A stretch of 64,000 nt of DNA. Origin: Schmidtea polychroa. Taxonomy: Eukaryota. The notes below the pieces were generated by a model. That model saw nothing but the letters and a program-made list of their open reading frames with translations. It searched no databases and had not been told where the DNA came from. A program made the translations under genes and the position numbers. Shown in pieces: positions 4,381 to 48,380 of this stretch (positions are counted from its first letter, which is position 1; each line of letters begins with the position of its first letter). The DNA lies in NCBI GenBank assembly GCA_044892525.1, contig CM097887.1, forward strand, positions 10,230,001-10,294,000, written 5' to 3'.

Positions 4381-5317
4381 GTTTTGAGTGTAACCAAGTA
4401 GACAGAATTTAATTTTCTTCAAAATAGCTGGATGTAAAATTAGAAATATTGCAAAGCTTATCATATACATGTATATGTAAAAATTATGAAGGCGTCTCGT
4501 AAAATTACTATTGAGTAATATTACTTTGTTATGGAATGTACAATATAGGTATAATAGTATTTGAATATATATGACCAATCATTTCAAAGCATATTTTAAT
4601 TGAATTTATATTTAGATATCTTGATTAAATAATATTTATTTTGAAAATCAATAAAACATTATTTAAGATAAATTAAAAAAAATTTCTAAATTGACTACAA
4701 ATATTTAATTTATATTTCTTCTATTTTATTGCCTTTTTAGTCTATCAATCAAAACTTTTTTTACTTTTAATTAATTTATATATTCTCTTTAAATTTCACT
4801 TAATTAAAAAAATATTCTAACCAAAATTTACAATTTTAAATAAATTTAATATATTTTAAAATTTATTTGAAATATAATTAGATAAATAAAGATTTTGAAA
4901 AAATTAAAAATTATAAAATCTAAATTTTAACTTGATTTATAGCATTATTAAAATGGTAACACGATAAATTAAGAAATTGTCACACTATTAATATTATGCC
5001 AAAGCAATATCGCAAGTGATTTCTTAAAACGGTTTATTTTCATTTCAGTTTTTTAACAATCGACTCAACAATTTTAATTACTAACATTAATTTTAATTAA
5101 TTAAATTAATAATAATAATTAAAAATTAAAATATAATTAAAAAATTATAAATTTCGAAAAAACATTTATTATAATAAAAAAATTTTTTTATTTTACAAAT
5201 ATTTAAAAAATAATATTTATATTTATATTTATTAATATATTTTTATATTTTTATAAATATTATATAATTCGTTTGAATAATATATTATTATTTATTATTA
5301 TATTATATCTTGTAAAA

Positions 5318-8300: not shown

Positions 8301-8469
8301 AATTGTGCCAGCCCTATTAAAGGAAATAGAATTAAATGAAATGGATTCGCAAAGATATTCCCTCATGAAGCGATTGGAAAGCGGAGGAATAATATTAGCA
8401 AAGGATACTCAACCAAGAAGTTCATCAGAAATCCTCGAAATCGAAATACCCGACTTTAAACATATGTGA
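5318..8469 (+). pseudogene. PSMD1: Intronless, divergent 26S proteasome regulatory subunit Rpn2/PSMD1 copy with one in-frame stop (7727-7729) and one frameshift (~8280)
   Basis: FWPELTDEIPKLE..LAALLVSKIYYHLG, YQLAFD, PC repeats (YSEGGALYAMGLIHAN, HGGCLGLGLAAMG, AMAYCGTGN, DDVRRWAV, NPHIRYGVAMAIG), FQSYWFWHPLANFISLAFTPT, and NPARIVP..GGII. ORFs 5273..7729, 7736..8320 (same frame) and 8284..8469 are collinear with no introns. Confidence 0.92.
6166..6570 (+). repeat. 72-bp coding tandem repeat (24 aa DDDDYSEVPAKKIKLEKEIIGIDI), about 5.5 copies
   Basis: aattggaattgatattg recurs at 6301, 6373 and 6445 (72-bp period), in frame within Rpn2. Confidence 0.95.
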
Positions 8470-25365: not shown

Positions 25366-26120
25366 TTGGGTTTATGTGCAAGTCGGTATCAAGACTAATA
25401 CAAGTACACTTTTTGATTACACTCTTTTTTGAACAATTACAATCTTTAATAACTCTTTGATCTGCACTTTTCAATAATACAATAAATCTCACGTAGGGAT
25501 AATCTTCCAACGGGAGATGTCCCTTTCTGGTACGTTCGATTTCAAAATATCTAATTATAACAACTGTTAAATCCTTTTACTCACTCGTTTAATTCTACTA
25601 AATTTTCGACCACCTGGCAATTATATTTCTTTGCTGGTTCCTTTTATACTTGACCCGTCAATTGATTTTAATTCGTCAAGCCCTTCGTATCCAATTTCCC
25701 GGGCTTCCTCCTATCTCTTTCTCTCATTGTCCTAATTTAATTTTCGTCGACCGATCTAATTTCCCCTTTGATCTACCATTTAGGCTCTCCCATGACACTA
25801 GGGCTTTCCATTATCTCGGGTTTCCCATTAGCTCGGGTTCTCCATTAGCTCGGATTTCCCATTAGCTCGGGCTTCCCATTAGTTAATTAATTTTTGTTTT
25901 TTGTAATTTATTCTTTCTAGGGACCCCCCATTGATTTTATTATATTTGAACTCGTCTCATAATTTGGCATCCGCCCATACCAGTTTCCTCCGAAATTATT
26001 CAATTTTTGTTTTTTTGATTATTTTAATTAATATCTTTGTATTTTACATTTATTATTATGAATTTGGTGTTTTCATTGATTTTCACCTCAATTTTGCATC
26101 TCTTTTATTGAACCCCAACA
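25364..26120 (-). repeat. 3' LTR (757 bp)
   Basis: Matches 47579-48380 apart from about a dozen substitutions and several indels (62-bp deletion, two extra 17-bp repeats). Confidence 0.96.
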
Positions 26121-26133: not shown

Positions 26134-26458
26134 AATATAGATTCGTCCTCGAATCTGTACATTTCTTATAGCTGAAATAATAACAATACAGAGCTATGAC
26201 GAAATATATTTAAAATCTTGAAATAATATATGTAAAAACTTGAAACAATATATTTAAAATCTTGAAATAATATATTTAAAATCTTGAAACAATATATCTA
26301 AAAACTTATATTGAAATTTAAAAACTTATATCGATATTTTAAAAACTTCCAAACAATAAATATTAGATTCAATCCAAGAAGCTTTAATGCGCAGTCCATT
26401 CTTTTTAAGCTAATTCATATATAACAAAGAAATCACAAATAACGAAATATCGATTTAT

Positions 26459-27515
26459 TCAAATAAACTCTTGTCTAGCAAGAGCTTTTTCAATATATTT
26501 CCTCATGTTAGCAAACCAACCACCAAAATCGATTCCTTCATTATCCAGTGTAGTCCGTATTCTGGTTTTCAATTCATCTCGATTTGCAGCCGAAGGATGA
26601 ATGGCAAATAGCACCGATTTAAAATGGCTAAAGTACTCTTCAATCGGAGTAAGGGGGTAAAAATCGAAAATTAATATTATTAGACTCCAACAGACTAATA
26701 ACAGTCCTGGAATGGTGAAACCTACAGTTATCCATTATCAATACGTCATTCGGATTAGATCTAAAATGGCTCAACAACTTTTCCTCAATAAAACCACAAA
26801 AACTTTCTCCGTTAAAAGCACCATCTTTGATTTCATAAGAAACTATTCCAGATTTCTTAATTGCCACCATACAACTGATATTAGTACCACGATTGCCTTT
26901 AACGATTTTGTAGGCTTTTGAATTTTTGGGCGAGTAACCGTAGTTCCTGGTTTGATGCAAATTCAGTCCGGTTTCATCCAAAAAAACCAAATGATCATTC
27001 GAGATAAAATTTGTTTCACGGGCGTATCTTTGCCTTAGATCGATATTTTTAGGGGTGTTTCGTTCCTGTGGAATTCTGACCAGTCGTTTCCTGGTATATT
27101 CCATCTTTTTAAGTATTTTAGAAACAGCACTCGAGCACCTAGTTATTCCGGAGTGTTGCAACTCTTCGGATAGTTCGGGCTGGGTAAATGAGGCGTCTCT
27201 TTGTAAAATTTGGCTTATTTTGGATTTCACGACGGACAAATCTGCCATTTTCCTTCCTTTCTTCGGACCGCAGATTTCTTCGTCCGTTGCGCCGTCGCAT
27301 AGTTTTCCGACCAGGTTATATGCGGTCTTTAGACTAATCTCTTGCTCGGAGGCGATTGTTTTTGTATCGGTATTTTTTTCAACCGATTTTCGGACTCGTT
27401 TTATGATTTCGAGCGTAACAGTTTGCCGCCTTTTTCGAACCCTGACATCTTGGCGCTCTTCGGAGGTTTGTTCAGTGCTGTTGGACATGGTTGAGTGATT
27501 TAGTTTTGAATGCAT
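26459..27515 (-). pseudogene. Tc1/IS630-family transposase with a ~14-nt deletion at ~26640
   Basis: HTH region, VFLDETG, MDNCRFHH, FLPPYS|PIEEYFSHFK continuing in a shifted frame to RQEFI* at 26459. Restoring PxLN gives DD34E. Confidence 0.92.
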
Positions 27516-27574
27516 AAATTCCAGTCTTAAAATATATCGATGTAGGTTTTTAAAATTTCAATATAAGTTTTTAG

Positions 27575-28107
27575 ATATATTGTTTCAAGATTTTAAATAT
27601 ATTATTTCAAGATTTTAAATATATTGTTTCAAGATTTTAAATATATTATTTCAAGATTTTAAATATATTGTTTCAAGATTTTAAATATATTGTTTCAAGA
27701 TTTTAAATATATTATTTCAAGATTTTAAATATATTATTTCAAGATTTTAAATATATTATTTCAAGATTTTAAATATATTGTTTCAAGATTTTAAATATAT
27801 TATTTCAAGATTTTAAATATATTATTTCAAGATTTTAAATATATTGTTTCAAGATTTTAAATATATTATTTCAAGATTTTAAATATATTATTTCAAGATT
27901 TTAAATATATTATTTCAAGATTTTAAATATATTATTTCAAGATTTTAAATATATTATTTCAAGATTTTAAATATATTGTTTCAAGTTTTTAGATATATTG
28001 TTTCAAGATTTTAAATATATTATTTCAAGATTTTAAATATATTGTTTCAAGATTTTAAATATATTATTTCAAGATTTTAAATATATTATTTCAAGATTTT
28101 AAATATA
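27575..28107. repeat. 22-bp tandem array (ATATATT(A/G)TTTCAAGATTTTAA), about 24 copies
   Basis: Direct reading. About 4 inverted copies at 26205-26295. Confidence 0.95.
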
Positions 28108-28983
28108 CTAATAACAATAACAATAATAATAATAACTTTCTATTTATTTTTATAGAAATCAAGCTGAATGCCTTTCCAATAGTAGCATCATGAAAATAGT
28201 TCCTTGTGATAAATTTGTGATTTTTATTTTCCTCAATATCCTATTATCATTTTCATCTCTAAATTTGATGTGTATATATTTGCAGTGTTTTGCTAAATCG
28301 TCATTAAAAAAAAATATTTTAATTTATAAAGTAACTACATTATTCAATTAACAAAATATTGATTAAATTTCACTTTAATAAAACTTTAATGAAATAAACA
28401 ATTTAAGAAAATGATGTTGATTTTAGTTTTAATAAATAATCAATGAAACATTTATCCTCAATTTGCCGTACCTATCTAACTGCATAGAATTCATTTGCAA
28501 AATTTCCTAGCAGCAGAACTTTTTTGAAAAATTATGTATAATTTAAATAATTTGCCGATCAACTGGAGCCGATGTAATCGGACTCCTGTCGGTTGATCTC
28601 AATTTTCATGGAGGGAAGAAAGACGGACTAATCTTTTTATTAGATTATTTTTTTTTATTATTTTAATTTTAAAACTTTATCGAAAGTTTAACGAATTTTT
28701 TTGATTGGACAAGATTTAAAATGAATTTCAAAAGGGAAGACTTTAGATGAATTTCAGTTAAACTGCTATTTAAGAATTGAAATAAAATAAATTCTTTTTA
28801 ATTGAATTTTAATTTTATGGTATTTACTGAACTTTATAAAGGCAATTATTATTATGATCTGTCAAAAGTAGTTTTTCGAATTTATCGCAATAAATGCAAT
28901 TATTATATAATCAAAACATTTTTCAGTGAGTGAACTTTTAATTTTATTTTTTTCACAGTTTTTTTTTGGAACTTAAAATATAT

Positions 28984-29430: not shown

Positions 29431-30895
29431 TTAATCCATCTTTATTTCTAATCGTTTTGTTTCATGCCGATATCGTATTATTGTTTCTTCTCGTTCATAT
29501 ACTACTCCATTGACAGTGACAGTGTCTCCGACATCAATGTTTGAAGTTGTTTTTCTCTTCTTGGATTTTCTACATTCTGGCATTGGACCATATTCAAGTG
29601 TTGGATGTGTCCTTATCATCGAAATGCTTATCATTAATGCAACACATTCTTCCGCAATTTCTAAGAATGATTCATTGGCCCACTTCAATTGAATCAATGG
29701 ATTTTCACTATCCATCGTTACATTCTCCTCGAATGTTAAATCAATTTCTTCAGATTCCATTACATCTTCAATTGGAATTTGCGTTAGTTTTTCTGGTATT
29801 GCAGTTGATGTTGATTCAATTTCCCGAAGCTTCTTATATTCATCCCACGAATATCTCTGACGGTTGATTTTTGGGCATCGGTATGTCATCAATCCATTGA
29901 CTTTCCACTCTCTGGTATACCTTGCGTATACTTTTCACGTCCTCGAGAGCCGAATGAATACTCATCTGAGTCTCTTCTCCACATATTTCTTTCACCACTG
30001 TTTGTAGTTTGAACCATTCTCCCTTTATGGTTACTCCCATGTTCTGAAGTATTGGTGCTGCTGCTAGATCTCGAATGCCGTACAATTGTTCAATCCATAT
30101 CCCCAAGTATTGTAATTCTGCATGCAAATCATGGCCGATCAATATCTTGCCCACTGTCAAGTGTTGAATCTCTTTTATTGCCACATATTGATCACATTGG
30201 TTCCTGCTGGCCACTTCTGTAATTCCATGGATCCTTGAATTAAAATGTCGGATTTTTCCTCTTGGAGTGAGGTATACATCTTTAACTACTTTCCCATAAT
30301 AATTCATAATTGCTATTGCTAAAGGGACCATTTTTTCTTGCTCTGATGTGCCTTATTCAGCATCAATGAATAATATTCTATTGCGGATTTCTTCTAGATA
30401 CATTTCTTTTCTGAGAAACGACAATTTCTTTTTCAACATTTCCTTTGAAATTTTCAATAACAATGGGTCTTCTTCAATTAGATGCATCTGTGGTACCTCG
30501 TCCGCTTCATTCTCAGTTCTGATTTCCACCACCAACGTTGTCTCCTCATTCGCTGCTCGTAGTGTTCTCCACATGAAGTCCTTCTGCAGCTTCCACGATG
30601 TGAATTTTCGAAGTTGCCACCATATTGTATTATCGTTCTTCAGCACTTCCACTGTACCTCTGATCACGTGTATGTGATATTCTTCCTTCCGAGACAACTC
30701 AATTTCATCTGTCAATTTCAATTCTGAATTTCTCCTTATTGTAAACATTCGTATCTTCATTCTTCTGTCATCTATCCGCAAATAATTTGGAATTTGTAAA
30801 TTTTCATTGATTTCGTATAATTGTTGGCTGGCATGATTTTTCTGCATCTTGAAGTAACTGTCGTAGGTGGATCTTGCCCATTGTACTTGTTCCAT
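29431..30895 (-). pseudogene. LTR element ORF3: N-terminal unknown domain + DEDDh (REX4/ISG20-like) 3'-5' exonuclease + C-terminal unknown domain; one stop (30353) and one frameshift (~29875)
   Basis: ILFIDAE* (ExoI), AIAIMNYYGKVVKDVYLTP..FNSRIHGIT, ILIGHDLHAELQYL (ExoII), HSALEDVKS (ExoIII). ORFs 30353..30895 and 29840..30331 share a frame. Confidence 0.85.
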
Positions 30896-31298
30896 TTTTG
30901 CTAAAATAGTTATAATTTAACGTTTGAATTTAATTTACTTTTAAAACTAGGGCTGAGATAAAGTATCCGAAGGATACTGTCCCAACTATTAGCTGTATAA
31001 ATAATAATAATAATAATTACCGATTTATTTGGGTGTCTGTTTATTTTTTGTTTCATTTTTTTTTAAATTAATTAAGTTTAATGAGTTTAAACCCGCCTTT
31101 TATACCCTTATCAAAATTTTCTTACCCTTTCATTTTCTTAGTGCTAACCAATCAAATTAATGCTTTTATTTCGTATTGAAAAGTGCAGATTCACATAAAT
31201 AAAATAAATAAATAAAATTCTGATTACATTCATAAAATATTAGTACTGTATTACTACTGCTACTTTATCAAATGTGCATGCAAAGTATTTGTATCTTA

Positions 31299-32192
31299 CT
31301 ACACAAAAGTTTCTTCATAGACAATCCAAGGTCTCGCAATCTCGGATTGGTTCGTAGAAGATTTGGATATTGTTCGAGATTCATTTGACACAATGATGAT
31401 GAGAATAATGAGAAAGATTATTATAGTTAGACTAGTTGATAATAATGTTACACACACAATGTCATTATCAGTATTTAATAATGTAAAATAGCTTTTTGAT
31501 TGGGTCCGTTTTTCGGGAAACATTCACCGTTTGATTGTAGATGTGAAAGATTACTCGGTTTGTTTCATTAACTAATCGTATCATGTGTTGACTAGAATGG
31601 ATTTTGACCCATTGACTCTTAATTTCGGTTCCATTTTCATAGAGATTTTTCATAATAATGAATGTGAATATTATAAGTGTGATGTTGTTTTAAATTGACA
31701 TAATTTACAAAGGGTTTTCTGCTGTTCAGTGTATCGATTGCATAATTTTGAAAAACTATTTTTATTTGTTGGGATTCACGGGGTTCCCAATATACGTCAA
31801 TTCCATTTACCAATGGTTCAATTGATACCCGATTTTGTAATCTCTTTGTCCAAATATTAATGCGTATAAGATTTTGTATTTTTGTATTATTACTTTTCGA
31901 ATCCAATTGCGTAATTAACCAAGGGTATTCATAATTCATTGTTAATTGTCTAGCCACATAAATATTTTTGGTGCTGTTCAATTTTATTGGGGGTTCAAAG
32001 TAGTTTATTAGATTATTTATCTCTATTTCTTCTGCTTCTCCAGCATAATAAACCCAAACTATTTGAGTACATGTTGAATAAATATGAACTTTGTCTAATA
32101 ATACAACTGTATTAGTTGCATATAATGGGAATACTCTCACTGCATTTACTGACATTATATTGATAATCATTACTGTTGTAATCAATAAAACT
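31299..32192 (-). CDS. Second predicted type-I membrane glycoprotein at the end of ORF2 (unknown family)
   Basis: Signal-like VLLITTVMIINIMSVNA (32141-32192), sequons NST/NNT/NGT/NET/NQT, and C-terminal TM TIIIFLIILIIIV (31389-31428). Confidence 0.6.
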
Positions 32193-32309
32193 TTATTGAT
32201 GTAACTCAATGGGGCAGGGTTTTTTGTAAACTTTTGTTTAAGGAATGTGTTTCCTTCATCTTTATTAAGTTTTGATCTTAATGGGTAACGTGATTCATCT
32301 TCTACTAGT

Positions 32310-32530
32310 ATCTTTTTACATCTATTTACATGAACGATGATTGTTCCAGCCTTTTTATTGTTTTGTGGACGCAATTTTAAATTAGTCTCTGTTGTATCGC
32401 ATACTAGATATGGTCCTTTAAACGGTCGTTGTAATTTCGCTGACAATCCCTTTGTTGGTTCTGGTTTGTTTATATACACTAGATCTCCAATTTCAATATC
32501 ATGCGCCCGTGCGCGTTCATGCACTATTTC
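32310..32530 (-). CDS. Gypsy integrase C-terminal GPY/F (SH3-like) module
   Basis: HDIEIGDLVYINKP..GLSAKLQRPFKGPYLV...IIVHVNRCK. Confidence 0.88.
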
Positions 32531-32554
32531 TCCAGTTTGCCCTTTTATCAACTT

Positions 32555-32860
32555 TCCAGTTTTCAGATCGAGAGAAATTCCTTGTAGTTGCTCCATTACG
32601 TCCATGCCAATAAGGCATTTTACAGGGCTGTTCCTCATTACTGATACCCAATGAATTATTTCTTGATTTCCAATTATCAGTTTAACTTCTAATTTTCCAA
32701 CAATATTTAGTGCATTATGTGACATTGATTTAATAATGTGATTAGTTGGTTTTATTTTGGCTTTCTCCTGATACGTCAAGAAACTTTCCGCTACTATAGT
32801 GTGATTTGAGCCTGAGTCTAATAAAGCTTCCACTTTTCTCTTATTAAACTGTATGTTTGT
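32555..32860 (-). CDS. Retropepsin-type aspartic protease
   Basis: KVEALLDSGSNHTIV (DSG at 32810-32818) and CLIGMDVM. Confidence 0.92.
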
Positions 32861-33296
32861 TCGAGGTTGTCTTCCTCCTACTACTGCTGTCATAAGTGCA
32901 TAGCTACATGGTAAACCAAGCATATTTTTTCTTTCAATCTCAGCACTCGTTGGTTCAATCTTTTCTAATTCGATTGTGATATTATCTACAGGTTTCATTT
33001 CTTTTAATTGTTCATTTGGATATATTGGTGCTGTTGGTTTAAATGTTGGAGTGTACCATCTAGTAAGAGTATCAATTCCACTTAGTTTTGGCATTGGTTC
33101 AAGTAAAAATCTGGATTCTGGCTCCCTTTTACTTTTTATTACACTTTTTCGAAAGCATTTATGTTCTGATTCGCCGTTGCTACTGTCATTGTTATGATCG
33201 TCGTTTTTGTCTTCCGACTGACATGTAGATTCCTCACTTCTCCGGCCATTTCTCAACTGCACTCTTACTCTTGCCATTTCTTTAAATTGATGATCT

Positions 33297-35089
33297 GTAA
33301 TAAAGAATCTGGCCAATAATGGAATACAGCCAATAATTAATTTCCATGACCATCCAGATATTGCATATATTCGATGTACTGATAATATCTGTGACACTAT
33401 CACCTTTGCTGTTATCACGATTACGTAAATTCCGATTAAGCCTGCACATGCTTGTCCCAAAAACATGAACTTGCCCCAAATCTTTTCCATCGTTTTGTAT
33501 GTAGCTCGTTTGAAATGATCAGGTGTTAGCAAATACTCGTAATTTACTTTTCCTTCCCCATTCGGTAATATCGTGTCAATCATTTCTGAAATTACTCGTT
33601 CTTTCTTGGATGGAAACAACAAATTTCTTTGAGCTTCTTCAATATCCTCGCTTGGGTACAAACTTATTTGTGCCATTTTGTTTAATGATGTGAAATTTAT
33701 CAGGTATTCTAGATTTGTTGATTCTAATTTGTCTGGAGTCTTGACTCCACGATAGTCTGGTAAAGCTATCCAAGAATCTGTTGCTAATCGGTATAAGGGT
33801 GCTAATAATCTATTACATTGTAAAATCTTTGGTTTAGTTTGTTCATCAAGCAAAATTCTAGTTATCGGTTCCATAAATCGTATCTTTCCACCGAGGCTTA
33901 CTGGTAGTTCGTTTGTGCATTTTTCATATTTAGTAATTTTCACTGAGACTTCTTTGCATTTGTAACTGTATAACGCTTCTCCAAAAATTCTCGCAAACAC
34001 GCCACTTTCTGATATTAGCATAGGTGCTACTAAATTTGGATTCGTAATTGCCATCGCCATTCGATTTCGAAGAATCTCTTTGTTTAGCTTGCAATCGTTT
34101 AGAATCATTTCTCTATATACATTTTCCATGATGTTTTGACTAAAATGAAACAAATAATCAATTTTATTATTAAAATAATGAGTAAGTTTAATATCATCTC
34201 TGTGAATTTTAATTTTTGCCTCTTCCACAACATTTCTAGACACATAAACGCCTTTATAATTTGTTACATACACCATTCAACCACATTTGTTGGTGATTTC
34301 CTTTTTTACAAATCGCATGCCATCTTCTGGTAATGTAGACATTAAAACTGTTCCCATTTGTTTTGTCCATATTGGAGTTGACTTAATAGTATCATTTGGT
34401 CTATATTTCGTATTAAAACTATCAGGTTTATCTCTAAACTGTTCTCCCACTAGCTCTTTAAAATTCATAGTTTTTAAGTGTGCTAAAATACACTTATTGG
34501 TTTCGACATTATAGACAAGAATCGATTCCCCCGTTTGACAATTTGTTTGTTTCATATTACAGAATGGATGTGTTTGTAGCTTTCCCGAATTATCGTCGAA
34601 AGCTCCTTCAAACTCTCTCAACTCTGTTAGATATTCTTCCAGCACAACTGTGTGCTGAACAATTTTACCATTCATTTTGTATGGTTCACCTTCACAATCG
34701 CCATTTGCTTTCATAACTCCTTTTACAATTATTGTTTCTCGTATCCTATGATTCAATTTTGCCTTTAAACGAATTTCCGGACTTATTTTTAATTCTCCGG
34801 TTTGAAATGCTGTTAGACAGTTTTCTGGGAGTACCTCAACTGGCCTAGGTATCGCATGCATTTTTATAAGTGACGTATGACTCCATTTGCCACAATAGAA
34901 TACAAATGTTGTATGTTTGACAATACACTCTCTTACTTGAGTTCTTCGTAAATCAGACTCTTGATACACGTAATATTTTATATCATTTTCTATTTTCAGT
35001 TTACTAGTATACGCACCTGGGCATTCCGACATATCAACTACTGAATAAATTTTTCCCATTTCAGTTTGGGAGCAATCATATGCAACTAA
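33297..35089 (-). CDS. Chuvirus (Jingchuvirales)-like envelope glycoprotein
   Basis: Mature N-terminus LVAYDC after a signal peptide. Motifs FYCGKWSH, GDCEG, CG.MVY.T, YFNNKIDY, GEALYSYKCKEVSV..CTNELPV..RFMEPITRIL, and C-terminal WGKFMFLGQACAGLIGIYVIVI TM. About 600 aa with one stop at 34277. Family recognised from motif memory. Confidence 0.78.
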
Positions 35090-35242
35090 TGATGATGTCT
35101 GCGTAATTATTGCACAAAATGTAATCATCATAAACATTGCCCACGGAAATATCATAGTTTTTCGCAGTTCTGGTCGAACTCTCTCATTGACTCGTTTTTG
35201 AGGTGGTTTCCTCTCTTGATTCTCGTTTTTCTTTTCTGTTAG

Positions 35243-35512
35243 AGACGAACACAGTGTTCTCCAACCACCATTTTCCTTTACCCAGTTCATTAGATATTCG
35301 TTTACTAGTCTGGCAGCGATATCTATCAAGTTATCTAATTTATCTGATTTCGCGAACGCATACGTTCCACTTTCTAAAACAATATAAGTTAAAGCTGTTA
35401 TTATCACATCCTTGTTAATTTCATATTTTGTTAAATTTTCAATTACTGATCTCTCGCAAAATGTATCCTCTTCGCCAAATTTCTGTACTACTTCAGGCAG
35501 TCTATTGTTCAT
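35243..35512 (-). CDS. Bcl-2-like domain (clear BH2, degenerate BH1)
   Basis: YLMNWVKENGGWRTL matches BH2 WIxxNGGW. EINKDVIITAL sits at BH1 spacing (NWGR degenerate). Followed by a basic linker and a hydrophobic anchor at 35090-35155. Confidence 0.7.
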
Positions 35513-38500
35513 CCTCTACTTCTATCTCTATTTCGAACATCGAATATACTGTTTTAACGAGACGTTTCAAAACGTCCTTAGTTTCGTCTACATCTTGTTC
35601 TAACCTCAATAAATATTTCTTTATTTCATATAAAGTTCTAACTTGCTTCTTTTTGCTTTCACCATTTGTTTCGCTTTCTGGTACAAGTGACTCTCCTTAT
35701 ACTGTTTCTGTAGACTGATCTTTTTTATCCAGCTCCTTCTGACCATCACCACTAACGATTTCCTCAATTTCTTGATTTACATTTACTTCTTCACCTTGTG
35801 CTTCTGTGTCAGACTCGCTGGACTTAATCTTGATTTCTAAACTTATTCCCTTTACTACAACTATATGGTTCACTAAATATCCCGCTCGTCCATTTCGGAT
35901 CAAACATCCATTTTCTCTCAGCTCTTGTGGAATACATCCGCGATCATATAAATATTCATCATCATCACCTTTGTACATTACTATAATAATTCCATCTTTC
36001 CCCATCGTTTCAGCTGCTCTCTTCCGTTATTTTCGAACCTTTGTACACCAATGCTCGTCTATATATTCCGTTTTTCCATATCCCTCATATTCTAATGCTA
36101 TCAAAAATGGCTTTAATTCAACTCTTGCCTTCCTGAGCTCCTTGCCCAATCTCTGTAATAAATCTCTTAACATTTTAGCATATCTGGTTTTTACATATAA
36201 ATATGGTCGTATTGCATTTGCAATTTCTATTTTATCGTTTTCTTCAAACTCTGATTTGTCAATCATTTGTAATTTCTCATTTATTTCGTCTTCATTTCCA
36301 ATATATAGCGCGTCATTCAATTTCTCTAGTATATCATTTGAACTTTTTACTATTTCCTCACTACTACTCATGCTCATTTCATCGCCACTCACTACACTTA
36401 CCATTTTTAATTCATTTCTACTTCCGGGTATAAATCCACAATCTACTGTTGGGATATGCAAGGGAAAAAAGATTAACCTCATTACCAAACATACAAATCA
36501 TCATCGTTCCCCTCAGGCCATTCCCCGACATACTCCAGATGATCTTGCTGATATTCCCGCGTGTGAGCCCGTGGTGATGTTCCACGTTGGTACTGCCCGC
36601 ACGGGTCGGAAGAGGTTAGCAGGCGAGCCCCTGCCTTAGGACTACTCCTAACCCCTTCTCAGTTCGGATTCCACGGTGCCTTAGAAGGACTTACCCCTTT
36701 CTGCACTTGTACTTGGTCCGACCCTGGTCCAAGGGAACGACCTTCATTCAATGACACATTTTCAGTTTATCAACCGATCCATACATTTCACCCATCACTC
36801 TCACAAACATATCATCCAATACAAAGAAAATTTTATTGTTTACATTGCATACCTCTATTACCAAAAACAAAAAATCTTACACCAATATTTAATGAAATGA
36901 CAATCAAAACTACAGATAAGTTATTTCACACAAGAGGGTTAGTCAATAGGTCTATCGAGAGCAAGAAATAGGTATTGTCGTTGTATTGACTCATCAGAAG
37001 ACTTCTCCGTCGGCGAATACTTCGTCTATATCCACAGGTAATCGGCGATCCGCGAGATACTTGATACCATCGGCCGGAACTACTCGGAATATTTCCTTGG
37101 CCGGAATCACGTGAGAATTCGAGATTTCTTTGATGGTGGACTGGGCCACTGATAATGAAGCCTCCAGCGAAGCGATGGCATTCCTACGTTTTTGATTTTT
37201 CGCGGCACGCGTCGGCCGCTTGCGTTTCCGATTTGATGACGAGGGGTCGACCGCTTGTTGTGTCGAGTGAGGCTGCAGAACCGGAGCCAAAATGGGGTCC
37301 GATGGGCCTTTTGACATGGGCCTGGCGCTTGAGAGAGACGGAGCGAAAATGGGAGATTATTGGGAGCCATGTCCCTTGCAGCTGGTTGTCGATGGAACTA
37401 CGGACATTTGATGGTGTATTGGGAACACGTTTGTTCCGTCCTGGATCGGATATTCCCGAACTCGCTTTGAAATTTCGACATCAGTGTATATCTTGTGCAA
37501 GGCCTCTGATTGGGCTTTTATCGTGAGCCTCTGGCACCTGCTTTACTCTAGGAGACTGTCACGGCAGTGCTCCAGTCTTAATATCTTGTTTCGCTCCTAC
37601 TTCATTTGTGGCGGGGAGAACCACGTGCCTTCATAGAGGTCTTTGCGTTTCTTCAAGGCCCCGATGTAGAGATGCAACTTCCTAATATCTTCGTTCTTGT
37701 CCGAACACGAGAAGCATGGGCGCAAATCCTTTCCTGATTTGATCGGTGTGGTCATCTGAAGATAAAGAAGGTTCCTGTTAAGATTACAAGAAAATCATTT
37801 GTGTATTCGTTGACGGATCTCTCGTGAGATCATGGTAACTCCCTCGACATATAACTCGATGACCCTCAGAAGAACTTCGACGGATTGTAGACATACGAAG
37901 TATTACTTACCACCAACAACCTGTTCACCCAAAGCAAATCATACAAGCTAGGAAAAGGAACGGGACCCATAACAAGCATATATTCACTGTATTAGCAATA
38001 TTCTAAATATTTGAAACTTGATAAATCCTTCTTTAGTTATCTCCTAATTCGGGCAAACCACTTATTTTTGAAATTTAAAAATCATTTATTATCATTCACA
38101 TCACCCTTATATTAGTTGTATGGTGATTATTCAACCACGTTATTATCGCTCGACGTGTCTGGTATTGAATTAAATGGGCACTCTTTAAAACACAATGTAA
38201 ATTCTATTTACATAAAATATTTATTTGCGAAATAATCTAATTTAATTTAACGCCGTGGAAGTAGTCATAGAAACCACTGATTAGATCACTGTTCTTTGCT
38301 ATGATTCGAGAAAATGCATGCTGGAATTAAAAAAAAAAAAATCAAATTTTATTTTAGTAAATTCGGACTGGCCATAAGGCCGAAGGGGGGAACTTCCCGC
38401 CACTTAATTTTTCTTTTTTCTTATTACTTCAATTCTTCTATTGCAGGAGTTGGAAACTCCCGCAATTGGACGTTTGTTCTCCGGTAAGCTTCGTACGGGC

Positions 38501-39202
38501 GAGAGAAGATAATCATGGCCAAGCATATTCCCGATCGGCCATGGCCCGCATATCAGCACCGGACATTCATTCGTAGATTAGGCTTTCTTGTTTTCGCTAT
38601 CTCTCTCTGGTGAGATTATTATTACTGTTTAGGAGCATTCAATGCCTCTTTCTGATAAGTTAAATGCTGTATTCTAAAAATTAGTTATTTTTTCGGAGTA
38701 GAAAGACTCCATTTGCGATTGTTGTAGCGTTACTATAGATACAATATTATAATATATATAGAATGTGGTAATTAGGAAGGAGCGATTATAGTATTGATAT
38801 GAACGCAAAATGGTACCACCAGTTGGGCGGAGCCTTTACAAAGACTCCTACAGGTACCAAACTGATAGTACCTTTACCATATTGCTAAATGGGCGGGATT
38901 CCTACAAGAGTCCCTACATCAACCCTTTCAGCAATAACCAAGAGTATTATATACATATATTTATCAATATAACGAGATTTATATATTATTGTATTATTAA
39001 AAAGTATATTTACGTTTATTAGTTTATTTAATTTTATTTATGGTAGTTTATTTATATTAAATAAATTAATCATATTAAATTATATTAGTTTATTTATTTT
39101 GTTTTTATTAGTTTATTAAATAGATTATTTATATTAGTTTATTGGTGTTGGAAGAAATAAATTCATTTTTACAAAACATCAAAAAAAAAACAAAAGTAAA
39201 GG

Positions 39203-42200
39203 TTATTTTATTTTATTTTATTTAATATATGTACTTAGAGTCGATATCAAAGATCATAGCAGATATAGTACAGATAAGTCGATATATATAGTAGATGTAG
39301 GACATATAAAGGTGACGGTTTGATGATATAATATTACCATAATGGACAAATAAATAAGGATTAATAGATAAGAAGTACTTTTATTATAGTTTAATTAATT
39401 AGTCGATGTATGTGTGCTCGCGATATGTATGGTAGCTACTGACAATGGCTGCCGTGCATGCTACTCTTGAGATTGATTTTATCTCTTTTTTGGTTAGTCC
39501 TATTATTTTAAGTCTTGTATCGTTTTCCTTATCCCACGATCCAAGAGTACCTACTACAAGTGCTGCAACTGTTGTTTTACATTTATATGCGTGGCCTATT
39601 TCAAGTGCCAGATTTTTATATTTTTCAAAATTATTATCCCTAGCTATTTTAAAGTTTTCACGATTTTCGTAAGGTACTTTAATGTCTAGGATATGTATTA
39701 GGGAGTTCCTGGACGATTTAATTATTATGTCGGGTTTAAGTGTAGTTTTGACACCTTCGGGGCAGATTTCAATGTCCATTTTGAAGTTTAGTTGGGTCAG
39801 GAGGTCAGTGACAGCTTCAAGTACACGCGAGTGTTTATTTCTCCGTGCATTTATTTTTACAGGGCAATGATTGAATATGTGGGCCTGTGTTTCAGGAAAG
39901 GCTCCACATTGTCTGCAAAAAGTGCTTAAATTGCCTTTTATTCTATGTGGAGTATATTTAAGGTTGAGAATATTGTTTCGTGCCCTTAAGAGGAAAAGAA
40001 ATTGGGCATCGTTTAGAGTATCAGTTTTTATAAAGTAGTCTGCTGTTGTACTATCAGAGATGGATTTGGCTATGTGTCCTTGACAGGTAAGGAGGCACCA
40101 CCTTTCAGTGTGTATCAGGCTTATTATTGAATGAAGTTCGGAAGATGTATCAGATAAGTTAGACGATGAGAAGTAATTAATACGGTCCTTATATATTATC
40201 TCTAATTGGTATTCGTCTTCTAAAAGGACTATTTTGGTGTGTATGGCGTATTTTATGCGAAGGCGATTGGATGCTTTGCGGAATTTTACAAAGAACGAAA
40301 AAGTAGGAAATGATTTTGAAATCTCGTCATTGACCCATAGGAATGCGGCTTCCATATTACCCATTCCACGAGATTCCGCCAGTTCATCAAGAACTAGTTT
40401 TCGGAACCCAAGGTCGACCGAATTCAAGGCTCGAATGAGATGGATGATACTCTGTATCAGATATTCATCTATTGCAGATGTGAGCCCAAGGCCTCCCATT
40501 TTAGTTGAGGCATATAAAAAGTTATTATTAATATTAATAATTCTGTCACCTATAAAAGTCTTTATTATAATTTTTATTTTTTGGTCAAACCCTTTTTGGG
40601 GTTTTCTATATTTAATAATATTATCCTTATGAGAATCAAGCATATTGTGAGCTATTTCGCAATTACGTAAGGTGAAAGAAAGACGTGAGTGGATAAAGAT
40701 CTTATAGGCATTAAGTTTTTGCGAGGGATGTAGATGAGAGTCGAAGATAGACTTTGTGTCTTTTATGGCATTATCGAGTCTTTCATCTATGTTATGGCTC
40801 AGTTTGAAAGAAAAATCAACTCCAAGATATCTGTAAAGGTTGGAGTCATCAATTCGCGGAATAAGTTCATTATAAAGTTTTATAGGAGAATATTCATAAT
40901 CATGGTTAATGTGAAAGTAACCAGATTTAGAGGGTTTGAATCGAAGGTTAGCCATAGAAGCGAGACGTACAGTTTCGAGAAGAGCGACGTTTATAGAGGT
41001 ATATGAATTAGCAACAAGGACAATGTCATCCGCATAAGCAAGTATGCCGACATTATGACCATGGAAAAGAAATGGATGATTTTGCAAGATATTACGTAGT
41101 ATGAAGTCTATAGATAAACAGAAGAGGGTCATAGACAGGGGACAGCCCTGTTTTACACCCTTAACAATTGGTACAGAAGAGGATTTTTCCCCCTCGCAGT
41201 CAAATATAGTATTTACGTTGCTATACATATCCTGTAGTAGCAAGATGGTTTTTGAGTCAAGACCCATTTGGGAGAGGGTGTGCCAAATTAGATCATGAGG
41301 GAGCGATCCAAAAGCGTCAGAGATATCTAACCATATAATGTGGAGGTCAGTTTTTTTTACGAAAGGAGGATTCCTTAAGAAGATGTAGGATAAAGTTATG
41401 CTCAGAACAACCATCTGGAGCACCAATGGCTTTTTGGTTGCATGTCAATAAATTACCGTCTTTGATCCACGATAAAAGGCGGTTATTTAGGAGGGAAGAG
41501 AAGATGCGATATGCAGTGTTCATTAAGGAGATGGGGCGCCAAGAGCTGGCCTCGTGACTGATTTTAGCTTTACCATTTTTCAGTAGGAGTTTCGTACGGA
41601 AAGTTTTCCAGGATGATGGGCAATTGCGGTTGCGTAAGATGTTGTTACAGAGCGATAGAATGAAGCTGAAGTCAGGTGAGATTTTTTTCCAATCAGCCAA
41701 AGTGATTCCATCGAGTCCTGGAGCAGTGTTTTGAAGTTGTGAGAAAATGAATTTGATATCATTCAAGGCAAAAGGAGTGGATGAGAGTTTTTCCGGTAAA
41801 GATGGAAGGTTTTTAATAAGATCCGTATTGCAGTGTGCGGAAGTACCTGCGAAAAGTCTCACAATATTAGACATAGTTGGTTTGCTACACTCAACTTTAT
41901 TATTTAAGATCTTTGTTATCTCCTCTTTAGGTTTAGTTTTATATTTAAAACGTTTAATGCAGAGCAGTTCATTTTTTGTCCTAGTTTTCTTATGGACAAT
42001 GTCTGCAGGTTTTTTAATTTTATATTTATCAGGAGAAATAAATGAATTTATTTTTTGCATTTCATTAAGGGCTGTTTCACAGTCCATATTATTATTATTT
42101 AAATTAATTATTATGCTTTTAATAAGTGGGGAATATTTTTTAATATTATCTTTAGGTATTTTATGAGAAATATAGTTTTCGATAACAGTTCTGATATATT

Positions 42201-43071
42201 TTTGCATGATATCAATTTTAGGAGTAGTTAATTTTGTATTTCTTATTAGGCATTTGATGAAGTGGCACACAAAAAAGGCAGATTCGTTTGAGGAAGAGCA
42301 ACGGGGGTACTCATATTTAGTGAGTCTAATTGTGATTGGTGAGACGATTTTTTGAAGATCAAGAATGGTATTAAGTATGCTATTTGCTAGAGATAAGTGT
42401 ATGGAGTGGCTATCATCAAGTAAAGGATCTATTATAACAGCAAGATGTCTCCGCTTATCAAGATAGAAGAAAAACCAGTTGTCTTTGCCGTTTGACATTG
42501 GCATAATGATTTCGTTCCACTCAGCGAAATCTTTGAAAGGGAAGGAAGAAAAGAAAGTTATGTAATTGTGTTGGATTAGAGCGTTACCAACAAAGGGGTC
42601 AACGAAGATGGTGGATTTTTTGATGGCGAAGGAGTAAACGAATGCCTTTATTGTGTGCTGGGACCATCAGGCTGACTCCTTATCAACATTATTAGTGAAT
42701 AAGCAATCATCTGGTATATCCCTACTAAATTCAATATTAATCATATCTTCATCTGAAGAAGTTAGTTTTGCTTCCTGGGTGTTTACAGGCACCTCCGGGG
42801 TGTTTACAGGTATCTCGAGGTTAACTGCAATCACCTCCTGGGTGTTTAGAATATTGTTTAATATATTATCATTAATATCCATGGATACAGGCATTTCGGC
42901 GGTATGATTTTGTGATGTTAGTGGGATATTATTAGTGTTAGGTGGTATTGGGTGTCTTTGGGCTATATGATTTATAATGTCATCTATTGGGACCCAGCAA
43001 TTGTAGTAGGAAACAAAATCCACTAGCAAGCAATTTTTCCTATCCGATCTCGTCGTAACTTCGTTACTCAA
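39203..43071 (-). mobile_element. RLE-type non-LTR retrotransposon (NeSL/Utopia-like) nested in the LTR element; 5' end not defined
   Basis: One ~1220-aa frame 43071->39399 with one stop (42667) and one homopolymer frameshift (~41350). Ulp1-like domain; RT (WRPISL, WLDISDAFGS, GVKQGCPLS, YADD, YRYLG); CRQCG..ETQAHIFNHC; PD..D..KY endonuclease; (TAAAA)n tail at 39203-39223. Confidence 0.92.
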
Positions 43072-45116
43072 TTTACTACCTATGGTTTCAGTGTGTTCAG
43101 AAATGACGTCACCGCCTTACACTTTGTCTGGGAGTTAGTAGATGCACATGTGTGTATTGTTAGAGTTATTTGTCGTCGCATGTAGGTTGGCTGCTGGATT
43201 TTATGTGAATGGAAAAAAAAATCTATAATAGGAATTATGACATCGATGTTCTAATTTTTAGATTTTCGCCGTGTTGATCGACTCGATTCCAACTCCACGA
43301 TTGTTATCCTATTAGCCATATTTACTCCGATAGTCGTCGATAAACGCATTTATGAAGAAGTCGTTATCCGATAATCTATAACGGGGTGTATTTGGAAAAT
43401 AGCTTATCTATCCACTACCGTTCGATTGTAGGAGAATAGGATTGTAAGATAAATTTTCAACGACTGGCCGATTCACGGATTTTCTCAAGACTGTCGTGCG
43501 TATTTACACTGGTTATCGCAAAACTTTGATATTTTTTCTAGGCGAACGAGTTGACGACGATGACAGCTTTTCAACGTTTGTTTGCCGATTTCTTTCGAAT
43601 CGGATAAAAGAAAAATCGGAGTGATAGATCTACCCGCTAACGTCTTAGCGGTGTGCATCCCTAAAGAATTTTGTTCTTAAGAAAGCTACGACGAACCTCA
43701 TGGATATTTTTAAGCAAAACATAGTCCTCTATCATTTAAATGGTTTTAGCAATAACTCGTCCATCAGCGTCGAAAGTGACAAAGTTCATTGAAAACGATT
43801 GAATTCGCGGGAATGCTTGGACATATGCAGCTTTTTCCTGGACTTCCTATGGAATTCCTCTTCCTATCGAGATGAATGACAATTATTCCCTTATGAAAAG
43901 AATCCTCGAGAGTAAATGATCTCACTCGGCGAAAAGGTTCCTCTCAGTTCCATTGTCATCGTCTACCAGATGTCCTCACCCTTCCTGACCCACCCAAGAA
44001 CGGCATACATCTCTGCCACCATTCTTGGACCGTCAGGAAGGACGATTCTATCTCTCCAAACCTCAATCATTGATATATCATGAACGATTATCAAACGAAA
44101 AATAAATCATATAGTTTACAAGATGGATTAATATTACTAGAAAAAATTATTTACCTGGCGACCACGCCGCCTGAATCTCGAACATGATGTTACATCGTGA
44201 TACTTATCGCACATTAACATTTCATTCCCAGTGAGGTTAATTTCATTCAAATTCTCGATTCAACATCTTCGTTTCTTATCGTTCGCTCCCAAGCATTTCC
44301 TTGCAAATTCATTCGAGTCTCCGCATCATGTCCGATCTCCAGACAACATCGTCGCCAGCATCATAGAGAGAGAACATCTTTGTAATCAATAGATTTTTAT
44401 TAAAAATAAAGTATTTTATTTAATCATTTTTATGTAAATCAATCGTAAATCAAACTTCATTCATCCCACCTACTATTAGTTTCTCCTCGAGAGTATTGAA
44501 AATGAGGTCTAGATTTTTCTCTTCCAAGTTAAGCGTCCTATTATTTTAGATGTAGTCCCTGTAAATCTGTTCAATGACGTTTGATAAGTGGTTCCTGTAT
44601 GATTCGTAGATCCTAGTCTGTAGAGCAGTTTGGGTAAATGGTCAATTCAATAAACTAAAATTTTTACCTGTAGAGCAGTTTGGTTAAATGGTACTCTACA
44701 GATATTTTCTATTTCTTTTATATTATTTTTCGTCCAATCAGGACACGACTTGTGTGTAATATTATTATTTATTATTATTTTTATGTTTTTTAATAAAATA
44801 TGGTATATTTTAATAACTTTTCTTATTTTTATTATTATTTTAGTTATTTTCCTATTTTTTATTATTTTCCTCCTGTTTTTTCCTGTGACCTTATTGTTTT
44901 TTTGGTTATAGTATAATTTTTTGTTTTAATTAGTTTATATATTTATTTGATAATGATTTACTTTATTTTATTTCCTAATTTCTGGTTTATTTTTCTTAAA
45001 TTTATTATTTTATTTCCTTCTGCTATTATGTGTGGTGAGTTATTTTCTTTTTCGTCTTATAAATTTTATTATTTTATTAGTTATTTTTATTCCCTTTATT
45101 TCCTATTTCTGTTATG

Positions 45117-47115
45117 TTAATCTAATTTAGTTGTTCTTTTATTTTCCGCGCTCTTCGCGAAATTTATTTTATCCCCTTTATTCATCTTTAACCTGATTTC
45201 CAATACTCTCGAAGCTTGGCCCAACACTACCAAGAATTCATCGTTTTCTAGCGGTCTATCATTAAATCTCAATTCTATCATGCCTCCTTCCCGTTTCTCT
45301 TTTAATTTAATTTTTAAATCATTCACGCTATCATTTGCCTCACAACGACAACAGATTATACTTTTATCAATCTCATCTACTACTTCTACAAAAATGAAAT
45401 CAAACCCTTTATTTTCCCTTAACATCTTTCCAAACATTTTCATTAATTCCTTAATTTCGTCTTCATACTTTGGATTCATGTTATAATAGTTAACACACAA
45501 GCTAATTACACTTTTTGTCTTTCTTATGCTCAAGGATATTTGACTTAATTCCTTCAACGATTTAATTATTTTGGCCGACTCTATTTCATTATTTCCAATT
45601 AATTTTTTTAATTCTTGTCATAATCATTGTTGCTTTTTCATTTTCTAAGTCATCTTTTATAACTTTCTTTTTCTCCTTTCCATTCAATTCTTCCGGTGCC
45701 TCATACATCATGTGATTATTATAGTCCTCGTCTGATTCAAACTTTGACATCAATAGATCTAAACGTCGACCCATTTCTCTCACTTCGCTTTCAATTATTT
45801 CATTAAAATTATCTGGCTGAACAAAAGCCACATTATCTGTCTGTGGTTTGTCACTTTGAAACCTAATCGACATCTTTAATATCGGCCTTTGAAATTTATC
45901 CGTATTCCTTGGACATGATCTGGCCATGTGTCCATAACCTCTGCATGAGTGGCACTGAATTTGTCCTTGTAAATTTAATTTATCTCTCTGCGGTGATGGT
46001 GATGTTGACGTTGATCTTGATCTGGCAAAACAATTTCGTGACATATGCCCTTTCCTTCCGCAATTATAGCACTGCAAATTCTCATTATTCCGCTGATCAT
46101 TGATATTCATTTTGGTGAAACTTTTCCCACCATTTCCTTTTAACCAATCTGGCCACATTTGCCTTGGACTACGTTGTACATTATTTTTGGACCAGCACTG
46201 ATTGCTGTCATGACCCATTCTTTGGCAATTATCACACTAAATTGGAATTGGGTTTCTCTGTACTCTATTTTTAAACCAACATTGGTCAACATAGTGTCCA
46301 ATCCTTTGACAATGACTACATTGAATAGGGCCTTCTTTTCCATCAATTTGAATATCTGTTGATTTGTTCGACTGAAATTTTGATCTAAAGTTTGGTGATG
46401 GACTACTTGTTTGTTGAAACCGATTGTTTTTAGATGGAGTTATTGATCTTTCCCTTTCGCCAGATATGACTGCAAACGACTCTGATTTCGACTGCGTACT
46501 TTTCAAATTCAACTCAATTTTCATTGCCTTTTTAATCAATTCATCAAAGTCATTAAAATCAACATAACACAAAGCCTTTTTAATTTCTTTCTTTACTCCG
46601 GACAAAAATTGATCCTGTAGCAACTCTTTTACTTGCTTTGCCATCTCAGCCTGTTCTGGTTTCACTTCGAATGCTTTCTCTGCAAGGGTTGTTAAATGAT
46701 AAGCAAACTCGCTTACGGATTCCTCTGACTTTTGTACACGGTTATAGAATTTCTACCGCATCATCCTTTTTATATCTCCTCCTATTAATTTAGCTGCAAG
46801 TGCGTCTTTCAACTTTGTCCAACCATTTGCTATTAATTTTTTATCAATTTGTTGCCATGCTTCTCTGGCTGCTCCTTTCAGGTATAGCGGTAATCTTTGA
46901 ACCATTATCGATTGGCTCCATCCATAGGCTGTCGCATACATATAATAATCTGCCATGAAGTCGACAAATGCCAACGGATCTCCCCCATACTGATCTACAG
47001 GTAGTTTTTGACAACTCGCATAGTCACTGCCTTCCTTGGCATTCCCCACAGAAACTGTGGACACGGGAGTTTCATCATTATTATTTGTATTATTAACTTG
47101 TCTTTGGGTACTCAT
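45117..47115 (-). pseudogene. LTR element ORF1: gag (capsid, four CCHC knuckles) + C-terminal ubiquitin-like domain; two TAG stops and one frameshift
   Basis: YGGDP..F..Y..A.AYGW..LPLYLKGAAREAW and QKSEESVSEFA..L..LA..QFLSG. Knuckles CSHCQRIGHYVDQC, CDNCQRMGHDSNQC, CYNCGRKGHMSRNC, CHSCRGYGHMARSC. ATG at 47115. Confidence 0.92.
45174..45401 (-). CDS. Ubiquitin-like domain at the gag C-terminus
   Basis: IFVEV..SIICCRCEANDSVNDLKIKLKEK..IELRFNDRPLENDEFLVVLG..VLEIRLK aligns by eye to ubiquitin (IFVK..[43 protein letters not shown]). No C-terminal GG. Confidence 0.65.
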
Positions 47116-47551
47116 TATATTCTCTACTAGTTTTTGGCTTCTCAATTTATAAAATGATCTGGTTAACACAGGTTTTACTCGTCTAAAATTTAAAGTATTG
47201 CAATTACAAAATTTACCTTTCGTTTTAATTTTGACTTTTCAATAATCAATATCCACAATTATTATTTTCACAAATCACCACTTTAATAATTTTCCAAAAA
47301 TATTCACCACTCTTAAATCAAATTTTTAACTTTAATATATGTATTTTTACCTTTTATCAATTTACAATACTTTCCCAATCTCAACAAATTTTTATCAACT
47401 TTTTATCACGTCAGTATTATTCGATATTTCAATCAAATATTTTTACACTTTAAACGAATTTTCACCAACTTTGGAACACGTTTTGAATCACTTCTGTATT
47501 GTTCGATATTATAGTCAAATACTTTCACAATTTCAACAAATTTTCACCGAC

Positions 47552-47578: not shown

Positions 47579-48379
47579 TGTTGGGTTTATGTGCAAGTCG
47601 GTATCACGGTCTGACTCCTTTGTGTTCTTTTTCAAAATCAAGATAACCCAACACAATAATTTTATTCAAGACTAATACAAGTACACTTTTTGATTACACT
47701 TTTTTGAACAATTACAATCTTTAATAACTCTTTGATCTGCACTTTTCAATAATACAATAAATCTCACGTAGGGATAATCTTCCAACGGGAGATGTCCCTT
47801 TCTGGTACGTTCGATTTCTAAATATCAAATTATCACAACCGCTAAATCCTTTTACTCACTCGTTTAATTCTACTAAATTTTCTTCGACCACCTGGCAATT
47901 ATGTTTCTTTGCTGGTTCCTTTTATACTTGACCCGTCAATTGATTTTAATTCGTCAAGCCCTTCGTATCAAATTTCCCGGGCTTCCTCCTATCTCTTTCT
48001 CTCATTGTCCTAATTTAATTTTCGTCGACCGATCTAATTTCCCCTTTGATCTACCATTTAGGCTCTCCCATGACGCTAGGGCTTTTCATTATCTCGGGTT
48101 TCCCATTAGCTCGGGCTTCCCATTAGTTAATTAATTTTTAATTAATTTTTGTTTTTTGTAATTTATTCTTTCTAGGGACCCCCCATTGATTTTATTTTAT
48201 TATATTTGAACTCGTCTCATAATTTGGCATCCGCCCATACCAGTTTCCCCCGAAATCATTCAATTTTTGTTTTTTTGATTATTTTAATTAATATCTTTGT
48301 ATTTTACATTTATTATTATGAATTTGGTGTTTTCATTGATTTTCAACTCAATTTTGTATCTCTTTTATTGAACCCCAAC

Positions 48380-48380
<1 letters not shown>
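47579..48380 (-). repeat. 5' LTR (802 bp) with TATAAAA (47920-47926) and AATAAA (47661-47666)
   Basis: TG...CA ends with terminal inverted repeat TGTTGGG/CCCAACA. Direct repeat of 25364-26120. Confidence 0.96.

Follow-up and report, generated by a model that had tools for sequence, protein, structure and literature searches.

A divergent Bcl-2-like domain directly ahead of env in a Burro-type retroelement of Schmidtea polychroa, followed by a probable Env signal sequence

Bcl-2 proteins encoded by viruses (vBcl-2) are characteristic of DNA viruses, and the poxviral proteins A52, B14 and A46 have Bcl-2 folds with non-BH3 partners. In Schmidtea mediterranea, the giant gypsy elements known as Burro or GYPSM1 (Jurka 2007; Grohme 2018; both by way of the review PMC6431247) are described, in the accessible text of that review, as carrying a BCL2-like motif with a Ubi/SUMO-like motif ahead of it and an env in frame between BCL2 and the protease, and the review proposes that Burro interferes with apoptosis. 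BURRO1 RNA has been found to go up upon smedwi-2 knockdown (PMC8532177). Six planarian elements with the order GAG-ENV-POL and an env of the HSV/gB type, Smed_errantivirus_1-6, are reported in PMC13524379, according to which gB ectodomains are flanked either by a signal peptide and a transmembrane segment (TM) or by two TMs, and Bcl2 is known from adintovirus/Maverick elements (PMC8502044). Both the Bcl-2-like domain and its position upstream of env are therefore already published, having been in print since 2018-19. The accessible text of the Burro review does not mention 'signal peptide' and gives no fold or origin for the BCL2-like motif (PMC6431247), and the available main text on the errantiviruses has zero occurrences of 'Bcl', 'Burro' or 'apopto' (PMC13524379). 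What is new here is the support for the fold, a likely single capture, purifying selection on the domain, and the signal-sequence anatomy and register of the stretch that follows it.

The window, by which we mean the whole 64,000-nucleotide stretch of Schmidtea polychroa DNA that was analysed (contig CM097887.1, positions 10,230,001 to 10,294,000), contains an element that reads, on its own strand, in the order gag, ubiquitin-like region, Bcl-2-like domain, env, protease and integrase end (Table 1). Its LTRs (25,389-26,120 and 47,666-48,380) are 93% alike, and sibling copies match it at 80-97% by BLAST. In Pfam searches the window gag matched zf-CCHC with an E of 2.7e-10 and Retrotrans_gag with an E of 0.064, while sibling copies gave gag matches with E values of 1.8e-7 and 2.9e-9 and a ubiquitin match with an E of 4e-4. 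Comparison with the domain annotations published for Burro revealed a matching layout: as in those elements, a single polyprotein holds Gag, a Ubi/SUMO-like region, a BCL2-like domain, env, protease and pol, and the env is like the fusion glycoproteins of mononegaviruses (PMC6431247). A BCL2-like motif directly ahead of env, LTR boundaries and very many copies, all features of Burro, were found. Frames of the window family are approximately 3,400 aa, with no MATH or BIR match in the stretches scanned, whereas Burro1 is given as 4,873 aa in the accessible source. Gene order and env type are likewise those of the Smed_errantivirus elements; by eye, the env listed for Smed_errantivirus_1 (PMC13524379) resembles that of the window, and those of _2 and _3 look like the envs of two sister families identified in this work.

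Table 1. Features of the Burro-type element and of the sequence nested within it (window coordinates)
Feature	Position	Strand	Basis
Burro-type gypsy LTR element (GAG-ENV-POL), defective	25,364-48,380	-	TG...CA ends within (AAT)n microsatellite; LTR match and BLAST to sibling copies
gag with capsid and CCHC knuckles, plus the beginning of the first ubiquitin-like region; interrupted by stops	45,227-47,238	-	Pfam
Nested insertion, 8.8 kb	36,447-45,226	.	TG...CA ends and 4-base duplication
Non-LTR element (Ulp1-like protease, RT) inside nested insertion	39,399-43,116		Pfam RVT_1 E 8e-21, Peptidase_C48 E 0.0011
Ubiquitin-like/helical region and acidic linker ahead of Bcl-2 domain	35,601-36,446	-	Ubl by likeness to sibling family and PMC6431247 (accessible part)
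Bcl-2-like domain	35,235-35,600	-	Profile, predicted fold, sibling comparison
Linker, basic, predicted disordered	35,156-35,234	-	pLDDT < 50 at model residues 132-158
Hydrophobic helix and polar c-region	35,090-35,155	-	KD19 1.87; helix at model residues 160-178
env, class III/gB-type fusion glycoprotein	33,190-35,089	-	Pfam Monjiviricetes_fusion E 1.9e-24 and 2.9e-59
Protease, then integrase C-terminus and second signal-like stretch	31,637-32,900	-	Pfam RVP E 8.8e-7; BLAST to sibling pol; hydropathy

The window copy is dead, because it carries the nested insertion, stops in the ubiquitin-like/linker region (36,027 and 35,697) and in env (34,277), and a 26-base deletion near 35,507 relative to sibling copies that shifts the frame inside the Bcl-2 domain, and because approximately 2.8 kb encoding RT, RNase H and most of the integrase are absent at approximately 32,518, as judged by BLAST to sibling pol. 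By hydropathy its env retains a single transmembrane peak close to the env end. As the stretch from alpha1 to env is unbroken in 18 of the 19 closest siblings, function was judged on these natural siblings rather than on the dead window copy. When a 412-aa frame was used as query against the 781-Mb genome, the 101 matches scored out of 2,722 candidates were all 89-100% identical; many of the matching frames were 3,437 aa long, and the longest among the matches scored was 3,442 aa. RT, RNase H and integrase lie downstream of the protease in the sibling stretches, where gag, env, PR, RT, RNase H and IN share one frame with env ahead of pol. The ends of the nested insertion match the LTR ends of the window element, and it may be a solo LTR from a related family.

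The motifs named in the sequence-only reading of this DNA were all located in the minus-strand frame 34,280-35,515. INKDV, at the BH1 position and without NWGR, occupies 35,405-35,419, the BH2 motif NWVKENGGW occupies 35,261-35,287, and LVAYDC (35,072-35,089) comes just after the hydrophobic stretch; DVLKRLVKTVYSMFE begins at 35,576 in another frame, beyond the frameshift caused by the 26-base deletion. A six-frame search of the window yields a single W-x4-GGW. Taken alone, the window frame matched Pfam Bcl-2 with an E of 0.052 in one run and 0.0081 in another, and in related families Bcl-2 was the top Pfam family for seven of seven representatives, with E values from 0.01 to 8.8e-7, each short of the 31.4-bit cut-off. 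A single sibling sequence searched against the PDB gave a best E of 0.0084, and its second- and third-ranked matches were designed helical repeats. A seven-copy profile searched against the PDB found 101 sequences at E <= 0.01 (best E 8.2e-6) with BH1 and BH2 aligned, and among the 60 matches listed of these 101 all were of the Bcl-2 family. A search of 1.84 billion representatives yielded eight matches: four proteins with the order domain, stretch and env, two short fragments that lack env, and two cellular proteins resembling Bcl-2. The same order was found in a MATH-bearing Burro1-type family and in one further family, and the domain is kept across families that are only 17-28% identical in it. 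Among the top candidates scored, no env-bearing family lacking a Bcl-2 domain was found; families like Smed_errantivirus_4-6 lay outside this individual check. Word-seeded homologue searches with a seven-row alignment gave no match at near or longer lengths, which is weak evidence, and a word-seeded search with a host Bcl-2 query gave one match, a Bcl2-like protein of Schmidtea mediterranea. On the profile evidence, we regard the Bcl-2 homology of the domain as real and divergent.

An AlphaFold2 model was built from 14 retroelement-type rows that include no known cellular Bcl-2, two of which (P0001 and P0007) are short pieces of assumed retroelement origin. The model has six helices, with a pLDDT of 86.3 and a pTM of 0.84. 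Foldseek against the PDB returned the Bcl-2 bundle expected from the sequence-only reading: all 41 matches listed were of the Bcl-2 family, at a probability of 1.00 and TM scores of 0.55-0.75, with a best E of 3.2e-3 and none below 0.001, and the top viral matches were mostly vBcl-2 proteins. In VIA-align against 48,161 chains the 35 highest-ranking rows were all Bcl-2 folds, and the best-scoring unrelated fold had a Z of 5.8; poxviral A52, A46 and B14 scored Z 5.8-7.3. The best match was HyBcl-2-4, with Z 14.6 and an rmsd of 2.7 across 129 residues, and a second model reached Z 14.7. Helical bundles may reach a Z of approximately 13 by arrangement alone, without kinship, but the profile built from sequence leads to Bcl-2 as well. 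Going by these models, the domain almost certainly has a Bcl-2 fold. In predicted fold (Z 13-14.7, rmsd 2.4-3.3), in BH2 and in having a hydrophobic helix after the domain, it resembles HyBcl-2-4, Bak, Bcl-xL, Bfl-1 and ASFV A179L. It differs from cellular and viral Bcl-2 proteins, to which it is 10-16% identical, in being embedded in a polyprotein, in lacking NWGR and a canonical BH3, and in having a shorter alpha3-alpha4; unlike their tails, its hydrophobic helix would be C-terminal only once cleaved. In the model alpha2 and alpha3 are merged and alpha4 is short, and the BH3 groove may be closed.

The placement of the BH motifs on this model altered one assignment. The DVLKRL helix, proposed earlier as a possible BH3, corresponds to alpha1 (the BH4 position) by both the model and the fold alignment, as the first helix of the domain (alpha1, approximately 35,540-35,600) aligns with the N-terminal helix of Bcl-2 chains. 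The helix at the BH3 position (model residues 30-50) is partly deleted in the window copy near 35,507, and in all rows the alpha2 column is without the G/A-D core of the canonical BH3 (L-x3-G/A-D). In BH2, the first Trp, the last Trp and the Gly-Trp pair are each kept in 13 of 14 rows. The Trp of the BH1 motif NWGR is retained in none of the 14; the Arg position of the motif is Lys or Arg in nine rows and Val in five, the latter being the clade of the window. NWGR is thus absent as first noted, but its loss is common to the whole lineage and is no peculiarity of the window copy. In BH3 binding the Asp of BH3 is paired with the NWGR Arg; in poxviral Bcl-2s different Arg residues may be used, and viral Bcl-2s with an altered NWGR still bind BH3 (PMC7719400, accessible part), so the loss of NWGR neither proves nor excludes BH3 binding.

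The dN/dS of the Bcl-2 core was 0.20, 0.20 and 0.11 in three family pairs, with one pair saturated. The values elsewhere were 0.03-0.08 for env, 0.15-0.29 for the Ubl regions and 0.18-0.48 for linkers; the core is therefore similar to the Ubl regions, overlaps the linkers and lies well above env. Purifying selection on the domain is real and moderate. A 24-row tree, made without two intron-split host genes and near-duplicate copies, separated the 13 retroelement-type rows from the remaining rows at a branch supported at 93/90, without a star. With respect to the host Bcl-2 genes, these rows fell weakly beside the Maverick Bcl-2s and host P0014 (85/78), on long branches. A single capture of Bcl-2 by the retroelements is likely on this sequence tree. 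Stand-alone Bcl-2 genes, dispersed and multi-copy and with hydrophobic tails of their own, were seen within Maverick/Polinton-like elements, where their neighbours include an A32-like ATPase, a chromodomain, a PolB-like frame and a TBP-like gene (E 3e-16 and 2e-14). These Maverick-type Bcl-2s group weakly with host P0014, and one family of them has a short intron-like stretch ahead of BH2.

The anatomy of the junction between domain and env was compared by simple hydropathy in 12 copies, eight from the genome of the window and four library proteins. In these, 45-73 residues separate BH2 from the motif [YF]DC, and the hydrophobic core starts 26-51 residues downstream of the GGW of BH2, whereas from its end to [YF]DC there are 8-12 residues. 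At the predicted cut site, three residues before [YF]DC, position -1 is S, A, G or C and position -3 is T, S or V, each in 11 of the 12 copies; an alternative cut three residues further on also fits. The same anatomy was found in four copies of a further family, and the Pfam env profile match begins at the junction, from profile position 5. The linker ahead of the core is predicted to be disordered and the stretch itself helical; the linker is basic, its length and charge differ between families, and its basic end is likely the n-region of a signal. The core is followed by a polar lumenal c-region rather than by a basic C-terminus. The sequence-only reading had taken the stretch for the tail anchor of the Bcl-2 domain doubling as the signal peptide of the envelope protein, and the second half of that proposal is supported by the register to env, the n/h/c anatomy and the small residues at -3 and -1. 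The stretch is, on sequence, very probably the internal signal sequence of Env. In the literature searched, much of the subscription part of which lay outside reach, neither a signal nor an anchor reading of the Burro stretch was found.

A lasting role as Bcl-2 anchor appears doubtful on the same sequences. Uncharged cores are 9-20 residues long in the tails of stand-alone host and Maverick Bcl-2s and 11-23 in the retroelement stretches, so that length cannot separate signal from anchor, host and Maverick tails being equally short; shortness of the core was for this reason discarded as an argument against a tail anchor. Host and Maverick tails start 18-25 residues after BH2, and in one retroelement family the stretch starts 20 after GGW. 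As these tails start near the position seen in the shortest family, descent of the stretch from a tail anchor, or dual use, is possible. A signal peptidase cut alone would leave approximately 1,100 residues of Gag-Ubl-Bcl-2 on the stub, and a free anchored Bcl-2 therefore requires a second cut. By hydropathy a second signal-like stretch follows the integrase with no Bcl-2 ahead of it, and stubs are therefore a general by-product of the polyprotein.

Jointly, the explanation that we favour, and hold to be reasonably probable, is that of a dead Burro-type copy in which a divergent Bcl-2 domain precedes env, the stretch would serve as the Env signal and the domain as a pro-survival mimic. The polyprotein would insert into the ER at the hydrophobic stretch and signal peptidase would cut just before LVAYDC, within three residues to either side. 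Env would then enter the lumen, its single TM would bring PR-RT-IN back to the cytosol, and the Gag-Ubl-Bcl-2 precursor would remain on the cytosolic side, with the stub tethering it for at least some time. In the least certain step, the element protease or SPP would free the domain, with or without the stub, and the domain would damp host-cell death. The HCV core-E1 junction is similar in that a cytosolic capsid-side product is joined to an envelope protein by an internal signal sequence, an analogy without homology; there SPP frees core from the stub (PMC5712332, accessible part). Judged from sequence and model, pro-survival activity of the domain is an even call. IAP (BIR-RING) and TRAF ORFs beside a Burro1-type element would fit death-control cargo. 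Were it to work in this way, a vBcl-2 in a very-high-copy retroelement of a stem-cell-rich animal would link transposon activity to cell-death control in regeneration, and the evidence on fold, capture, selection and register makes the question of function reducible to an isolated domain of 130 residues.

Two other explanations overlap with parts of this one. According to the first, the stretch would be both signal and anchor, and a stable membrane-anchored Bcl-2 mimic would guard the stem or germ cells of the host. The order of domain, linker and hydrophobic helix mirrors Bcl-2 architecture and is retained in every env-bearing family found, and the start at 20 residues after GGW in one family is comparable to host and Maverick tails, which start at 18-25; we nevertheless consider full dual use unlikely, as the register of the stretch tracks env and not BH2, its core gives way to the polar c-region without a basic C-terminus, the second signal-like stretch has no preceding Bcl-2, an upstream protease cut would be needed for a free anchored product, and in HCV a comparable stub is cut again by SPP (PMC5712332, accessible part). 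According to the second, by analogy with HCV core, the stub would chiefly tether the Gag precursor to the ER near Env for particle assembly, and the Bcl-2 fold would be a scaffold or, like poxviral A52, B14 and A46, bind non-BH3 partners in autophagy, innate signalling or ER calcium. This is compatible with the single frame that spans gag, the domain and env and has one hydrophobic peak ahead of env, with the loss of NWGR throughout, with a BH3-position helix that has no G/A-D core and with the shortened alpha3-alpha4. It is made improbable by a fold closer to cellular and BH3-binding Bcl-2s (Z 12-14.6) than to the poxviral signalling inhibitors (Z 5.8-7.3), by the BH2 Trp and Gly-Trp retained in 13 of 14 rows, and by altered-NWGR viral Bcl-2s that bind BH3 all the same (PMC7719400, accessible part).

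A more specific scenario seems decidedly unlikely in its entirety: one capture of a host Bcl-2 from a Maverick-donor lineage, a helix acting as both tail and Env signal, and a processed, anchored pro-survival vBcl-2 that would keep element-expressing cells alive. That NGGW is a chance match, or the domain a neutral relic kept only since the frame must stay open, would suit the weak scores of single sequences (Pfam E 0.052; best PDB E 0.0084) and is highly improbable given that profile, fold and tree are concordant, that dN/dS is 0.11-0.20 and that the domain persists at 17-28% identity, the chance match being ruled out by the PDB profile search and the fold comparison.

Several further observations were made on the element and its relatives. 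In three of 36 junction-spanning matches (C3:26.9 Mb, C2:128.3 Mb and C2:177.1 Mb) we found a derivative from which env, the signal stretch and pol, approximately 6.4 kb, are absent; in it the Bcl-2 domain is in frame with a downstream region bearing another hydrophobic segment. The second signal-like stretch after the integrase falls in a part of the window (29,431-32,200) for which a sibling has a C-terminal TM, and may belong to a second surface protein; a separate ORF gave a weak match to an RNase T-like exonuclease (E 0.0011). Four contig sets yielded no usable signal on expression or on a spliced env RNA, and a start of its own for env is conceivable. In contigs of one run, RNA by guess, poly(T) loose ends lie inside env, possibly reflecting internal polyadenylation or an unrelated insertion. 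A Burro1-type element has MATH within its polyprotein and, downstream, ankyrin, TRAF and IAP (BIR-RING, 392 aa) ORFs; of 309 candidate BIR matches 150 were scored, most of them in frames of 392-393 aa. Elsewhere in the genome, a Bcl-2 gene with a canonical NWGR is present in seven near-identical copies clustered at C4:89.9-90.8 Mb, and a Bax/Bak-like gene has a clear BH3 exon. The window itself also contains a hAT transposase remnant (1,197-2,916), a proteasome RPN2 gene (5,207-8,320) and a Tc1/mariner-like transposase (26,203-28,110) whose inverted repeats contain a 22-base tandem array.
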